Origin: an uncultured bacterium
GTDB lineage: Bacteria; Patescibacteriota; Minisyncoccia; Phycocordibacterales; UBA11359
Assembly: GCA_903831815.1 (NCBI GenBank)
Contig: CAIKZC010000001.1
Location: forward strand, 20,188-84,187
Length of the DNA stretch: 64,000 bases
Direction: 5' to 3'
In this document: one piece after another, positions 7,402-45,257 of the stretch
Position numbering within the stretch: position 1 is the stretch's first letter
How the letters are laid out: every line of letters starts with the position of its first letter
Notes under the pieces: model-generated
The model's input: the letters and a program-made list of their open reading frames with translations, nothing else
The model's database searches: none
Told to the model about the DNA's origin: nothing
Translations under genes and position numbers: made by a program

Positions 7402-8109
7402 TTATCCTTGTGTTTGAGGGAGACACATAAACGACTCAAAAACCGGAGTTAAAGAAATGGTGGGTAGTACGGAACTGATTAAAAAGTTTGCAGACTCTTG
7501 CAAATCACCCTTCCCAGAAACCCTAACGGTCAATAAACTGGCACTATTTTTGCTTAATACGGTTGCTTGAAGCACAGGGTTTTTTACATCTGGATTAGAA
7601 CACTCTGTGCATGTTTTTGTACCCGCCACATGAGCAATATAACCATTGGTTAATGTGATTGTTTTATCTAGATCCGGTTTACCAAAACCATACGCAACAA
7701 TGTTATCTTTTGGATAACCCGGCCAACCACACTGTCTTGGGCTATACTGAACAGTAATTGAGTCTGTCTTTGCTTCAAAATTATTCATACCACCATCAAC
7801 AAAGTTCCTTTCCTTGATTACCTCAGGGCCTGCATATTTAAATCCAAATCCATATTGAGTATTTGTATACGTTTTCAAATTACTCATCTGGTTAGACGGC
7901 GTTGTGTTCGTCTTTACAACAGCTTGATTGGTCGGAGTGTTTTGAGTAGTTATAGGCTGAGTGTTTCCGGTCGTTGTCTGAGAACTATTTACTTGTTGTG
8001 TCGTCTGACCATTACTTTGTGAATAAATATAAATACCAAATGCTAACACCAATAAAACAATAATTATTGATAAAACCAACACTGCCGAACCTTTTTGTGT
8101 ATTTTTCAT
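7402..8109 (-). CDS. hypothetical membrane-anchored surface protein with Thr/Gln-rich linker
   Basis: 235 aa: N-terminal TM helix (AVLVLSIIIVLLVLAFGIYIY), a T/Q/N-rich low-complexity linker, then a Cys-containing globular domain. Confidence 0.4.
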   Translation of the reverse strand: MKNTQKGSAVLVLSIIIVLLVLAFGIYIYSQSNGQTTQQVNSSQTTTGNTQPITTQNTPTNQAVVKTNTTPSNQMSNLKTYTNTQYGFGFKYAGPEVIKERNFVDGGMNNFEAKTDSITVQYSPRQCGWPGYPKDNIVAYGFGKPDLDKTITLTNGYIAHVAGTKTCTECSNPDVKNPVLQATVLSKNSASLLTVRVSGKGDLQESANFLISSVLPTISLTPVFESFMCLPQTQG

Positions 8110-8206
8110 ATTGTGTTTAATGGTACAACATATTTTACAAAATGAACAGGTGCGTGGTGTAAATTGAATTTTTAAGGAAAACGAGTAGTATTACGTTCAT
8201 AATTTT

Positions 8207-9124
8207 ATGGATCTGCTTATCGCACAATTAGACCAAAAATACAAAGACTTCTTGCGTAATTTGAACTACAAAGAACCTGCCGATTCTGTAGCTTTTGGCC
8301 ATGCGTATGACTACTTTTGTATCATTGAAAAGCAACCTCGAATAAAAGAAATTATCGAAAACGATAGGAAGGAAATTGGATATAAAAAAGATGCTGTCGT
8401 ATTTAATCATCCTTCAATTGACGAGCAAAAAGACATAATGGACAGAATTGAGTGGAATTCCTTGTCTTTCTGCTATGACGAAATGTCGAGAGATATGTAT
8501 ATTCCTACTCTTAAATACAAAAATTCACTTGATGTACTTACACCGAAAGACATCATCGGCATAACTGAAATCCGCCGAGAAAAGTTTATAAGTTTCATGT
8601 TCTATCTCGTCAAAAAAGTAGGAAAATGGTTTGTAACCGATCGATCAGATTCCGACATTGATAATAGAATTGCTCTAGGCAAAATCGAATACAATTTCAA
8701 GCAAGAAAAATATCAGGTCTATATGAGTCGAATCCACTCAATTCTCATTCCTCAACTTTTAGAAATTCACACCAAGAAACCGATAGATGTGTCTGATCCG
8801 GAAGACCTAAACGGCATTTCTTTCGATAAAGAAAATAGCATTTTAAAAATCGGCGACAAAGAGGTAAAAATTACTTTGAAAAATGATAAAACAAACGGTC
8901 ATTATGTTCTCGAATATCTTTTTGAAAATGGCGTGGAAAATCCAGCCGATTATAAAGACATCATCATATCAAAATTCAAAGGCGACAGGAAAGATAACAT
9001 GTCCATTTATCGAGCTTGCAATGACATCAACAAAAAGGTTTCCAAACAAGCCGGTGTAGGTGAATTTTTGGATATTCACAGCGGAAAAACGGGCTGGGTT
9101 CAGATATATTCTAACTTTCTCTAA
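8207..9124 (+). CDS. hypothetical protein (element-borne)
   Basis: 305-aa ORF, no recognisable motifs; first gene of the plus-strand block. Confidence 0.45.
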   Translation: MDLLIAQLDQKYKDFLRNLNYKEPADSVAFGHAYDYFCIIEKQPRIKEIIENDRKEIGYKKDAVVFNHPSIDEQKDIMDRIEWNSLSFCYDEMSRDMYIPTLKYKNSLDVLTPKDIIGITEIRREKFISFMFYLVKKVGKWFVTDRSDSDIDNRIALGKIEYNFKQEKYQVYMSRIHSILIPQLLEIHTKKPIDVSDPEDLNGISFDKENSILKIGDKEVKITLKNDKTNGHYVLEYLFENGVENPADYKDIIISKFKGDRKDNMSIYRACNDINKKVSKQAGVGEFLDIHSGKTGWVQIYSNFL

Positions 9125-42098: not shown

Positions 42099-42491
42099 AA
42101 AAAAAACCGCTAGGATCCTCGGTAGGCCAAGTGCCTATACGAGACTATGAGCGCGGTGTGTGTGCAAGACTCCATCATGAGACGAACGGGCCACGGACCT
42201 ATGCCGGACCGATTACACCATACTCGGTGAAAGGTTTGTAGTTCAGCACTACCAACCTTGTTCATGGGAATCACGCGCTATCCTAGCGATCGCTCAGTAC
42301 CGATCAAGCGGTTGTTTGGGTGTAGGTCGAAGTCGTCCCGCGACCAGTCAGACCAAACCTGAACTTCAACGAAATCGTTGTTTTACCATCTCTTACCTCG
42401 AGGACAGAGACGGACTTATGCGACACATCCGTTGCAAACGTGCCACAACGATGCTTTTAGACTATCACAATGCTTTTTTTTAGCAACTTTT
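42099..42491. other. ~390-nt GC-rich ORF-free segment between prfB and the tRNA-Thr pair; candidate structured ncRNA of undetermined class
   Basis: No ORF of 60 aa or more on either strand. GC content is well above the flanks. Long-range inverted repeat CGCTAGGAT (42108) / ATCCTAGCG (42268) and a 10-bp palindrome AGCGATCGCT. No hallmark motifs for tmRNA, RNase P or SRP RNA could be confirmed by eye. Confidence 0.25.
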
Positions 42492-42589: not shown

Positions 42590-42855
42590 TGGAGCCGTTG
42601 ACCGGGATTGAACCGGTGACCTCGTCATTCACTTCTACCTCCATTTCGCCAAATTGGCTTATAAAAGGGTTAGACTGTATCTTACGCATACCTTTCGGTT
42701 TAGCGCCCCTTGTCAGTCGTTCGGGCGAAACTATCGCCACGGTCTTACCCACACTTGTGGACTTTAACCGTAATTCGGGCTTCATCATTTCGTTTCCAAA
42801 ATGAAGGGCTATTTAATTAACCAATGACGTGCTCTACCAACTGAGCTACAACGGC
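42590..42855 (-). tRNA. tRNA-Thr (anticodon GGT) interrupted by a 190-nt group I intron after position 36; CCA encoded
   Basis: 5' exon 42855-42820 is GCCGTTGTAGCTCAGTTGGTAGAGCACGTCATTGGT. 3' exon 42629-42590 is AATGACGAGGTCACCGGTTCAATCCCGGTCAACGGCTCCA. Joined, they form a canonical 76-nt tRNA nearly identical in pattern to E. coli tRNA-Thr. Confidence 0.75.
42630..42819 (-). ncRNA. group I self-splicing intron (190 nt, ORF-less) in the anticodon loop of tRNA-Thr(GGU)
   Basis: Helices found by eye: P7 GACUG/CAGUC with J8/7 AAGAUA, P3 GGUUA/UAACC directly 3' of P7, P5 CCAC/GUGG, P6 GGCGA/UCGCC, P8 GCGC/GCGU, P9 GCCAA/UUGGC. The 5' exon ends in U, the intron ends in G (GUG). Confidence 0.65.
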
Positions 42856-43932: not shown

Positions 43933-44006
43933 CGCGCCCGGCCGGACTCGAACCGGTGACCTATCCCGTGACAGGGGATTGTTCTAGCCAACTGAACTAC
44001 GGGCGC
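43933..44006 (-). tRNA. tRNA-Asp (anticodon GTC)
   Basis: Cloverleaf: acceptor GCGCCCG/CGGGCGC, D arm GTTC-AGTTGGCTA-GAAC, anticodon stem ATCCC/GGGAT with loop CTGTCAC, T arm ACCGG-TTCGAGT-CCGGC, discriminator G. Confidence 0.85.
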
Positions 44007-44659
44007 ATTTTTATGAACTTATCGAAAACAAGCTTCTTCCTAGGCAAATACAGCTTGTGAAGCTTATTATACATAATTTTGTATAATTTCAAAGAGTCCA
44101 GAGTACTAAAGCTTAATCTGCTACAATTTTTTGCTTTTACCTTATAAATATATCCACCCAATAAACCTTGTTTTTTGAGACAAAAAAGTAGACTTTTCAG
44201 AAAATCATAACTACAACTAGTAAAAGAAGATTGAATAACATGTGTAGGAGTTTTTCTTTTTTTATTCAGAAAACCGACCCAAACATTTCCGTCACCATCA
44301 AAATAGCCTCGAATAAAATCTCCAGCGTATTCTATAGGAATATGAGGCAATTCCATACGTTTTGCCTTATTCATAATCAACCCAAGAGCCAAAAGATCAG
44401 CAAACAGCTCCTTGCTGCCAATTTGTATATTGTAACAATAACCAGTTTCTGAAACTCGTTTTGCTATTTTGTGATTTGACCCGATTGAAAAACGAATCGA
44501 GCGAATCAATTGGTAGTCTTTTGTATAAATTGAAGTAAAATGCGTCCCTCTTTTTGTTTTAATGATATTTCCATCGGCAAACAAAAAGCCCAAGATATAC
44601 GCCATATCTGATGACCACGTTTTAAAAAAGTTTTTGTTGTATTTTTTATATATTGGCAC
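43997..44659 (-). CDS. LAGLIDADG homing endonuclease, free-standing (two LAGLIDADG motifs)
   Basis: 220 aa with YILGFLFADGNI and IRGYFDGDGNV, the two dodecapeptide motifs of single-chain LAGLIDADG enzymes. Its stop overlaps the first 10 nt of tRNA-Asp. Confidence 0.75.
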   Translation of the reverse strand: MPIYKKYNKNFFKTWSSDMAYILGFLFADGNIIKTKRGTHFTSIYTKDYQLIRSIRFSIGSNHKIAKRVSETGYCYNIQIGSKELFADLLALGLIMNKAKRMELPHIPIEYAGDFIRGYFDGDGNVWVGFLNKKRKTPTHVIQSSFTSCSYDFLKSLLFCLKKQGLLGGYIYKVKAKNCSRLSFSTLDSLKLYKIMYNKLHKLYLPRKKLVFDKFIKMRP

Positions 44660-44679
44660 GTGACAGTATTATACACTAA

Positions 44680-45077
44680 ACATAATATAAAAAAGGAGGG
44701 CCGCGCATTTACGACCCCCACACATAACCCGCTAAACATCATCCTCACCTTCTGCGTCCAATAGTGTGCAAAGAGCCGCCTCGCATCTTCATGCAACGCG
44801 CCTCATCAGGTCCGGAATGTCGAATTTGCGACCTTTCGGAATCAACGTAAATCTGACTCATGACACGCGCGGCATACTGCGCACCACGAGACCGCACAAC
44901 AGGAGACCGCCCACCTCGAGATTTTGTGGCCATTTTGCCACCTCCAGAAATGTACTCTACCAAAGCTTTCCGTGAACCCATACACACAGAACGTCCATGC
45001 GTACATGTCTTCGCTTTGGCGTTATCCACCTATAGTCTATTACTATTGACAGATTTGTCAAAGTTTAATAAATGTTG
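44680..45077. other. ~400-nt GC-rich ORF-poor segment between the LAGLIDADG gene and the CAU tRNAs; candidate structured RNA or decayed intron/foreign DNA
   Basis: GC is about 55% against about 40% locally. Only short, Arg-rich, RBS-less ORFs. No confirmed family motifs. Confidence 0.25.
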
Positions 45078-45148
45078 TGTCGACGAATGGAATCGGACCA
45101 TTGTTTGAGGCTTATGAGTCCCCCGTTCTACCATTGAACTACGCCGAC
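45078..45148 (-). tRNA. tRNA with CAT anticodon (Met or Ile2/lysidine type), atypical: C at position 55 and mismatched 31-39 pair
   Basis: Minus strand: GTCGGCG-TA-GTTC-AATGGTA-GAAC-G-GGGGA-CTCATAA-GCCTC-AAAC-AATGG-TCCGATT-CCATT-CGTCGAC-A. The cloverleaf holds but the T-loop is TCCGATT instead of TTCGATT. Confidence 0.5.
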
Positions 45149-45185
45149 AATACTACCACAAATGCCCTTGCGGGCATTTTACTTG

Positions 45186-45257
45186 TTGCGGGGGACGGAA
45201 TTGCACCGTCGATCTACAGGTTATGAGCCTGTCGAGATACTACTTCTCCACCCCGCG
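45186..45257 (-). tRNA. initiator-like tRNA-Met (CAT) with C1xA72 mismatch; atypical D-loop (no GG) and T-loop TGCAATT
   Basis: Minus strand: CGCGGGG-TG-GAGA-AGTAGTA-TCTC-G-ACAGG-CTCATAA-CCTGT-AGATC-GACGG-TGCAATT-CCGTC-CCCCGCA-A. The unpaired 1-72 and the GG/CC in the anticodon stem are initiator hallmarks. Confidence 0.5.

Follow-up and report, generated by a model that had tools for sequence, protein, structure and literature searches.

We analysed a tRNA cluster in a 64,000-nt stretch of a Paceibacteria genome (candidate phyla radiation (CPR)/Patescibacteria; GenBank assembly GCA_903831815.1, contig CAIKZC010000001.1, positions 20,188 to 84,187). This whole stretch is referred to as the window, and positions are counted from its first letter. 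The cluster has the order fMet, Met/Ile2(CAU), Asp, Thr and Thr, and an open reading frame (ORF) for a LAGLIDADG protein lies directly before tRNA-Asp. Our reading of the sequence comparisons, which we hold at a probability of roughly 0.7, is that this ORF is a free-standing homing endonuclease gene that has settled in the 5' flank of tRNA-Asp, that the GC-rich slot upstream of it is separate from the endonuclease, and that the two tRNAs with a CAU anticodon are working tRNAs. The interest of this reading rests mainly on a family-wide pattern and not on the single locus. An earlier note on this DNA, made from the letters alone, had described the principal elements; every one of them was found where the note had placed it, and all the details that we checked hold.

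The endonuclease and its active site

The gene (43997..44659, minus strand) starts with GTG and encodes 220 aa. It matched the Pfam family PF14528 (LAGLIDADG_3) in two stretches with 39 bits, against a cutoff of 22.5. The first LAGLIDADG motif, LGFLFADGNI (AYILGFLFADGN, 44567..44602, minus strand), contains the catalytic residue D29 at 44573-44575, and the second motif, RGYFDGDGNV (DFIRGYFDGDGNV, 44282..44320, minus strand), contains the catalytic residue D123 at 44291-44293. A28-D29-G30 was invariant in 150/150 unique family members, and F120-D-G-D-G124 together with W127 (the GYFDGDGNVW block) was likewise invariant in 150/150.

A PDB search with the single endonuclease sequence gave no match, and profile and fold searches were needed. 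The profile search found the archaeal rRNA-intron enzyme I-Tsp061I (2DCH) at E = 4.7e-6. The AlphaFold2 model had a mean predicted confidence (pLDDT) of 91 and a predicted template modelling score (pTM) of 0.88, and it followed the doubled alpha-beta-beta-alpha-beta-beta-alpha order. Among the best 50 Foldseek matches listed, nearly all were LAGLIDADG endonucleases and 2DCH led with E = 1e-10; that is, the same enzyme was the best match by sequence profile and by structure. The top structural matches were the monomeric LAGLIDADG enzymes I-Tsp061I (TM-score 0.66/0.70), I-AniI, I-SceI and I-DmoI. The motifs and the predicted fold identify the product of the gene in the window as a true monomeric LAGLIDADG enzyme whose active site is intact.

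We detected 1103 homologs, nearly all of 216-225 aa, from Paceibacteria/Parcubacteria metagenome-assembled genomes. The protein also matched phrog_4645 ('endonuclease') with E = 9e-36 over profile positions 95-305 of 308. As this match begins at profile position 95, phage relatives with about 95 extra N-terminal residues exist. Public gene calls (P0001, 202 aa) place the start of the endonuclease at M19. The 18 residues before M19 (44606-44659; consensus MPIxKxYNKxFFKxWS) are conserved across the family, and the GTG at 44659 is therefore the likely start.

A fixed site at tRNA-Asp

The earlier note had reported that a double-motif endonuclease gene ends within the first 10 nt of tRNA-Asp, and this proved correct. 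The tRNA-Asp(GUC) gene (43932/3-44006, minus strand) was called uninterrupted by ARAGORN and Rfam (61.9 bits). Its first 10 nt form the last codons and the stop of the endonuclease gene, and the TAG stop corresponds to tRNA positions 8-10. Related loci, which are cited here by L numbers, were collected to compare this junction; 160 of them were fetched by similarity to the endonuclease, and about a dozen more by exact-protein look-ups. The ORF ended inside tRNA-Asp(GUC) in 122/138 unique junctions, the overlap was the same 10 nt as in the window in 90 of these 122, and the stop codon was TAG in 127/138. In most cases the ORF brings no stop codon and terminates at U8-A9-G10 of the tRNA. The spacer between the endonuclease and the upstream tRNA(CAU) varied from 35 to more than 2600 nt across loci. 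The endonuclease family holds one site across Paceibacteria, in more than 150 relatives of the window.

One suggestion of the earlier note was that the endonuclease targets one of the neighbouring tRNA genes. The fixed junction on one side and the variable distance to tRNA(CAU) on the other support this idea indirectly and sharpen the putative target to tRNA-Asp.

Presence and absence of the gene among relatives

Relatives were sampled independently of the endonuclease by a search with p231, a 231-aa hypothetical protein whose gene lies just upstream of the initiator tRNA(CAU) on the minus strand. Five syntenic lineages without the endonuclease were found (L173/174, L175/176, L177, L179/180 and L181). 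All five have LigA-GatC-GatA-p231, two tRNA(CAU) genes and tRNA-Asp in common. The endonuclease is carried at the tRNA-Met/tRNA-Asp junction by the window, L171, L172 and L182. L173 and L175 represent the empty site, with 61-79 nt from tRNA(CAU) to tRNA-Asp that include a promoter-like TTGCTC-17-TACATT. In L177, about 50 nt of the endonuclease 3' end are kept; this piece is about 90% identical to L172 and is fused 3 nt before tRNA-Asp.

Endonuclease identity tracked host-protein identity poorly. The Pearson correlation between endonuclease and PrfB identity was 0.36, with only 16 loci having both genes, and the endonucleases of L008, L025 and L108 were only 55-60% identical although their FtsE proteins were 87-92% identical. 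The endonuclease gene has a GC content of 31-35% and a codon adaptation of 0.13, compared with about 0.3 for host genes. Since the gene is intact, absent from five close lineages and present as a remnant in L177, it behaves as a mobile free-standing homing gene. Presence and absence, the remnant, the poor tracking of host-protein identity, and the low GC content and codon adaptation are together what the life cycle of a homing endonuclease typically leaves behind, as far as sequence can tell. In such a cycle, the endonuclease would cut gene-free alleles in or beside tRNA-Asp and would then be copied in by break repair.

Promoter motifs and coexistence with the tRNA

An extended -10-like motif, TGTATAAT, lies at 44668..44675 on the minus strand, 8 nt upstream of the endonuclease GTG. 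Its flanked form, TAGTGTATAATACTGTCAC, is conserved in L171, L172, L011, L012, L013, L014 and L182. Across the family, a -10-like hexamer ended 5-9 nt before the start codon in 89/130 unique upstream regions. A promoter motif 8 nt before the GTG would make the endonuclease mRNA leaderless or nearly so; the gene may have an extended -10 promoter to itself and yield a leaderless transcript.

A second copy of TGTATAAT lies within the gene at 44066..44073 (minus strand), in codons M196-Y197-N198 and 59 nt upstream of tRNA-Asp. This internal motif, ATGTATAAT, was exact in 141/151 unique genes, compared with about 56% expected from synonymous codon usage. The 50-nt remnant in L177 retains exactly the piece with the internal TGTATAAT, and in the window the motif also precedes the initiator tRNA and p231. 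The internal copy is a probable replacement promoter for tRNA-Asp, judged by its position and conservation. Placed within the last 25 codons, it would re-supply the promoter of tRNA-Asp, and the insertion would cost the host little.

The stop codon lies inside the mature tRNA; therefore, 5' cleavage by RNase P would leave the endonuclease mRNA without a stop. It is plausible but unproven that such processing yields a non-stop endonuclease message and acts as a brake on expression. The tRNA overlap, the borrowed stop and the embedded -10 motif together suggest how a selfish gene can occupy a tRNA operon without silencing the tRNA.

The GC-rich segment as a separate unit

A GC-rich orphan unit (44690..45076, minus strand, 340-390 nt) separates the second tRNA(CAU) from the endonuclease promoter. 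The earlier note had described GC-rich, ORF-poor DNA upstream of the endonuclease, and the GC content of 44700-44999 was indeed 52-55%, compared with 41% for the whole window. The unit contains a sigma-70-like promoter, TTGACA-16-TAGACT (45034..45061, minus strand), which is the best match in the 3.4-kb region with 10/12 positions. It ends in a terminator-like hairpin (44690..44719, minus strand), which has 9 pairs with 6 G-C pairs among them, and a T-run (CTTTTTT). The segment is probably transcribed.

We searched the segment for known RNAs and proteins. Rfam was run at the gathering threshold on the whole window, at E <= 10 on 3.4 kb, and at E <= 10 on queries of 411 nt and 806 nt. Only tRNAs and chance matches were obtained for the GC-rich segment and for seg2, a second non-coding stretch described below, and neither a housekeeping RNA nor an intron family matched the GC-rich segment. 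RNase P RNA, transfer-messenger RNA (tmRNA), 6S RNA and signal recognition particle RNA were each considered and rejected, as no such family appeared at E <= 10 with the 411-nt query and permissive filters. The sole match of that query was a chance hit to OTKONC, with 19.5 bits against a gathering score of 141. A tmRNA was not called by ARAGORN, nor was a T-arm or ACCA seen by eye; likewise, no P4 motif of RNase P was seen by eye. The best ORF in the stretch had a non-coding codon score (0.02, compared with about 0.3 for real genes). A phmmer search of the 94-aa ORF against 1.84 billion representative proteins gave no homolog, only itself and one low-complexity match, and the protein search of the segment found nothing in Pfam or PHROGs. 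Its fold z-score against shuffles was -1.3 to -1.7, indicating that it is not convincingly structured.

The segment was found by BLASTN among 182 related loci only in the same-species contigs L001 and L002. It was not repeated within the window, and 20-mer scans of viral contigs found nothing. L171, the closest relative with the endonuclease (78% identity), has no such block, and there the endonuclease begins 75 nt after tRNA(CAU). In L177, L179, L181 and L182, the slot after the same tRNA(CAU) holds a different GC-rich unit of 330-450 nt. These comparisons indicate that the segment is a lineage-specific occupant of a hypervariable slot and, on its distribution, not part of the endonuclease element.

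It is possible, and we consider it only tentatively, that the segment is a functional, fast-evolving small gene native to the slot, and not foreign or inert filler, encoding either a small RNA or a basic peptide of 47-84 aa. Five syntenic lineages (the window, L177, L179, L181 and L182) have a GC-rich unit after the same tRNA(CAU), and each unit contains a Shine-Dalgarno-like site with an ATG some 80-100 nt downstream, together with a terminator and a short ORF. A -35 box of the TTGACA type (TTGACA/TTGACC) is present in four of the five, namely the window, L177, L179 and L181; L182 has only the -10-like TAGACT. The window and L182 units have the blocks TAGACTATA, CGAAGAC and GGAGGTnGnnAAAATGG in common. 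However, GC-rich DNA is expected to contain ORFs and purine runs resembling Shine-Dalgarno sites by chance alone, and the window ORF is the one with the non-coding score and no homolog. No significant similarity was found among the five units, at the nucleotide or the peptide level, by local alignment with shuffles, BLASTP of the ORFs or sensitive BLASTN. A MAFFT alignment was marginal (0.34, compared with 0.318 +/- 0.01 in shuffles, with a shuffle maximum of 0.362). The fold z-scores were inconsistent; L177 (-3.4) and L179 (-3.9) speak for a small gene, whereas L181 (+0.2) and the window unit (-1.3 to -1.7) do not. In addition, the unit is absent from L171, L173 and L175.

The tRNA-Asp intron and known homing systems

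In 70 endonuclease loci, tRNA-Asp was interrupted after U35. These loci gave 64 unique introns of 194-303 nt, which end in G; their alignment shows 29 covarying pairs and a conserved core of the group I type. Uninterrupted tRNA-Asp genes were detected 84 times, 81 of them in endonuclease-bearing loci, and the intron share is about 45% of the endonuclease loci. The tRNA-Asp of the window has no 35/36 intron, being called uninterrupted by both ARAGORN and Rfam, and the intron was absent in all five lineages without the endonuclease. Intron state clustered on the endonuclease tree; the nearest neighbour had the same state in 101/133 cases, compared with 66 +/- 7 in shuffles.

A self-splicing 35/36 group I intron in tRNA-Asp was described in 3/95 complete genomes (Nakagawa et al. 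2026, PMC13011429). The introns of the relatives, with U at -1 and a terminal G, fit this class and have no endonuclease gene of their own. The same study, in which only intron interiors were examined, concluded that Patescibacterial tRNA introns largely lack endonuclease genes and so move little (PMC13011429). A text search of PMC13011429 and related papers found no mention of a flanking LAGLIDADG gene.

By analogy, an endonuclease gene beside an intron-bearing tRNA-Asp resembles collaborative homing as known from phages, where, for instance, F-CphI is paired with the cyanophage S-PM2 psbA intron, and mobE of T-even phages with their nrdB intron (I-TevIII) (PMC6083498, PMC2790892). As in those phages, a free-standing endonuclease gene adjoins a gene that has an endonuclease-less group I intron in many relatives, and intron state clusters with endonuclease lineage. 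Unlike F-CphI and mobE, the present gene lies in a cellular CPR genome, belongs to the LAGLIDADG family and not to the Endo VII-like or HNH enzymes, has a tRNA as its host gene and overlaps that gene. Furthermore, about half of the present loci, including the window, have the endonuclease without the intron.

We do no more than raise the idea, doubtful as it is at present, that the LAGLIDADG family is what mobilises the tRNA-Asp 35/36 introns of Patescibacteria, in a cellular LAGLIDADG form of collaborative (trans) homing. Under collaborative homing, the gene would live in the pre-tRNA leader, borrow the U8-A9-G10 stop, be throttled by RNase P and carry a replacement tRNA promoter, and genomes with the endonuclease only, such as that of the window, might be an intermediate or immune state of the cycle. 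An intact LAGLIDADG family immediately outside tRNA-Asp, with an intron in about 45% of its loci, challenges the view of endonuclease-less introns in PMC13011429. If the enzyme does cut intronless tRNA-Asp, the conclusion of that study would need revising. The family would then also show, in a natural bacterial setting, the route that has been proposed for the pairing of introns with free-standing endonucleases. Apart from the intron, over 1000 natural variants of one compact, monomeric meganuclease scaffold of 220 aa, which presumably has a conserved tRNA gene as its target, are available in the family, and it may become a tool.

Two substitution patterns in tRNA-Asp were noted. A G30.U40 anticodon arm (CTCGC/GTGAG) was present in 3/5 tRNA-Asp genes from gene-free lineages, compared with 4/105 unique tRNA-Asp genes beside an endonuclease; the three carriers are L177 (5948-6022), L179 (5441-5515) and L181 (5366-5440). 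This arm could be a cleavage-resistant allele or could simply reflect shared ancestry. Immunity substitutions that set intron-bearing apart from intronless exons were also considered and rejected. Only the anticodon-stem pairs 29-41 and 30-40 differed between the two, and P1/P10 pairing of the intron or phylogeny are equally possible explanations.

Phage T4 SegB is a free-standing GIY-YIG endonuclease in a tRNA gene cluster and cuts the tRNA region of related phages. Like SegB, the present gene is a free-standing endonuclease gene in a tRNA cluster, where conserved tRNA DNA is a plausible target and source of repair homology. Unlike SegB, it belongs to a different nuclease family and lies in a bacterial chromosome instead of a phage. 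For SegB, neither an ORF-tRNA overlap nor a tRNA promoter within the gene is known. LAGLIDADG endonucleases are also encoded in rRNA insertion sequences or introns of CPR bacteria (PMC11270868). The present enzyme shares the monomeric double-motif fold with these and with I-Tsp061I, and the phylum with the CPR rRNA enzymes. The rRNA enzymes are encoded inside an rRNA intervening sequence, whereas the gene in the window is free-standing in an intergenic tRNA leader, and its identity to 2DCH is 19%.

Homing or domestication

Several points weigh against the reading of the gene as a homing endonuclease gene at tRNA-Asp. The homing function rests on family membership, an intact active site and the presence/absence pattern, and the gene-free sample consists of five lineages of one clade only. 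The 170 comparison loci were all fetched by similarity to the endonuclease, and "always beside tRNA-Asp" therefore describes the endonuclease family and not all Paceibacteria. The weak correlation between endonuclease and host identity may reflect fast evolution and not transfer. If the intron site is the target, the window and about half of the endonuclease loci, which have an uninterrupted tRNA-Asp, would need another form of immunity. As to the promoters, the codon bias at the internal TGTATAAT may partly reflect a preference for AT-rich codons, and a promoter scan gave 8 promoter-like sites compared with 6.7 expected by chance, with the promoter and terminator of the GC-rich segment being consensus matches only. 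Finally, a domesticated protein that is useful to its host would also be expected to have an ORF that is always intact and to keep its catalytic residues unchanged over 45-80% identity.

This last point leads to the alternative that the LAGLIDADG protein is a vertically inherited host factor, for instance a maturase of the group I introns in tRNAs or a protein that binds DNA or RNA and is linked to the expression of tRNA-Asp. The constant site, the intact ORF and the near-constant length over the same range of identity are compatible with such a role. The best structural matches include the bI3 maturase and I-AniI, which has both endonuclease and maturase activity, and group I introns are present in the tRNA-Asp of relatives and in the tRNA-Thr of the window. 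Pure maturases, however, commonly lose the catalytic Asp, and here both are invariant. About half of the endonuclease loci have no tRNA-Asp intron, and the 35/36 intron self-splices in vitro without protein (PMC13011429). Vertical inheritance is further at odds with the absence of the gene from five close syntenic lineages, the decayed remnant in L177, and the low GC content and poor codon adaptation of the gene. We regard domestication as unlikely, and we retain a free-standing homing gene as the reading of this ORF.

The tRNA-Thr intron and the intron-remnant proposal

The earlier note had mentioned an intron-bearing tRNA-Thr 1.1 kb away. This intron is real, and intronless alleles in relatives join exactly across its 190 nt. 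The split tRNA-Thr(GGU) gene spans 42593..42855 (minus strand), and the divergent group I intron occupies 42630-42819 at position 36/37; it was missed by ARAGORN and by RF00028. A divergent class of 36/37 introns in tRNA-Thr(GGU) was described in PMC13011429, and the intron in the window belongs to it. The intron is 87-89% identical to those of L085 and L094, whose endonucleases are only 49-62% identical to that of the window, and it is absent from the closer relatives L173, L177 and L182. In the note, either of its two hypotheses on the endonuclease would tie it to this intron-bearing tRNA-Thr. We found no direct link between the two; in relatives, the intron partner of the family is the tRNA-Asp 35/36 intron, which is absent from the window.

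The note had further proposed that a group I intron once sat in a tRNA, that its core helices have since decayed, and that the endonuclease and the GC-rich segment are what is left of it. In favour of this, the segment is GC-rich and non-coding, and RF00028, which gave no match to it at E <= 10, also misses genuine divergent introns here; the Rfam negative alone is thus weak evidence. We built a covariance model, R1, from 28 Patescibacterial tRNA-Asp introns and ran it with filters off. R1 recovered the divergent tRNA-Thr intron of the window with 28.1 bits (E = 1e-8), yet it scored 0.2 bits at best in 44680-45076 on both strands, and an nhmmer profile of 64 introns gave no match in the segment. 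No tRNA half or repeat was found inside the segment and no split tRNA halves beside it, the flanking tRNAs being complete. With the segment also absent from L171, L172 and 160 other endonuclease loci, in which 35-130 nt separate the endonuclease from tRNA(CAU), and with promoter-like and terminator-like sites of its own, the intron-remnant proposal is very improbable.

The two CAU-anticodon tRNAs

The three tRNAs from the initiator to tRNA-Asp were called by ARAGORN and Rfam, all on the minus strand and with 58-62 bits, and the statement of the earlier note that the tRNAs flanking the endonuclease are not split was borne out, since both are complete by the two programs. The tRNA(CAU) at 45077-45148 (minus strand, 60.2 bits) is of the elongator type and is either Met or Ile2. 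Its T-loop is UCCGAUU, with C55, and it has an A31.G39 mismatch. The initiator tRNA(CAU) at 45185-45257 (minus strand, 58.4 bits) has C1xA72, the D-loop AGUAGUA without GG and the T-loop UGCAAUU with G55; that is, A18-G19 and G55 replace G18-G19 and U55. Both scores exceed the Rfam tRNA gathering score of 29. Position 1-72 is C1xA72 here and A1xA72 or C1xA72 in relatives, and G30-C40 and G31-C39 are present. Pair 29-41 of the initiator is A-U, which leaves two G-C pairs and not the canonical three.

These oddities had been taken in the earlier note to suggest either divergent functional tRNAs or tRNA-derived relics. The same initiator variant was found in L171, L173, L175, L177, L179 and L182. 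Near-identical C55 tRNA(CAU) genes were found in L173, L177, L179 and L182, and the 31-39 mismatch recurs across relatives. Among 345 unique tRNAs from the loci, G55 occurred only with A18-G19 (33/33). U55 occurred only with a GG D-loop (262/262, of which 261 had a UUC T-loop), and C55 kept GG (27). Because the oddities recur in relatives with perfect A18/G55 covariation, both CAU tRNAs are functional; the first possibility stands and the relics do not. By this sequence pattern, they are working tRNAs with a compensated elbow contact that is ordinary for the lineage. With the A18/G55 swap in 33 tRNAs, nature has run a compensatory experiment on the G18-Psi55 elbow contact, which is near-universal. 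A full-text search for A18, G55, tRNA and T-loop together found no paper.

The T-loops with G55 contain UGC or CGC and belong mostly to initiators, but also to elongator tRNA(CAU) and to a tRNA-Thr (L011-L177). Two further unusual T-loops were seen among the loci. A T-loop with an A54...U58 swap (AUCGUUC) occurs in 16 unique tRNA(CAU) genes (L008 3698-3772, L015, L025 and others), and the T-loop GUCAGCA occurs in 7 short (71-nt) tRNA-Asp genes (L016 3654, L109 3648).

Other features of the locus

Read on the minus strand from 45350 to 42050, the order is p231, tRNA(CAU), a hairpin, tRNA(CAU), the GC-rich DNA, the LAGLIDADG ORF and tRNA-Asp(GUC), followed by a DHH/DHHA1 phosphoesterase gene, the split tRNA-Thr(GGU), tRNA-Thr(CGU), seg2, prfB, ftsE and ftsX. 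The hairpin, AAATGCCCGCAAGGGCATTT (45160-45179), lies directly 3' of the initiator tRNA and is kept in L171, L173, L177, L179 and L182.

The stretch seg2 (42100-42491, minus strand) is a non-coding segment of about 390 nt between tRNA-Thr(CGU) and prfB, and it ends in a T-run. Its fold z-score was -3.5, with 0/100 shuffles as good. It matched no Rfam family and had no homolog in the 182 related loci. L173 has no such spacer, and the spacers of 290-430 nt in the same slot of L182 and L177 are unrelated.

Several relatives have short inserts of 130-260 nt that are flanked on both sides by copies of the 3' end of tRNA-Asp or tRNA-Met (L008 4920-4948 and 5085-5113; L008 3750-3772 and 3911-3928; L179 5495-5515 and 5645-5665; L086 2341-2988). 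In L086, a 255-nt unit is tandemly repeated. These inserts resemble scars, or miniature elements with the 3' ends of tRNAs as integration sites. L175 lacks the endonuclease and has, about 1.4 kb downstream of its tRNA-Asp (7676-9067), a bAvd gene and a reverse-transcriptase gene, which together mark a diversity-generating retroelement.

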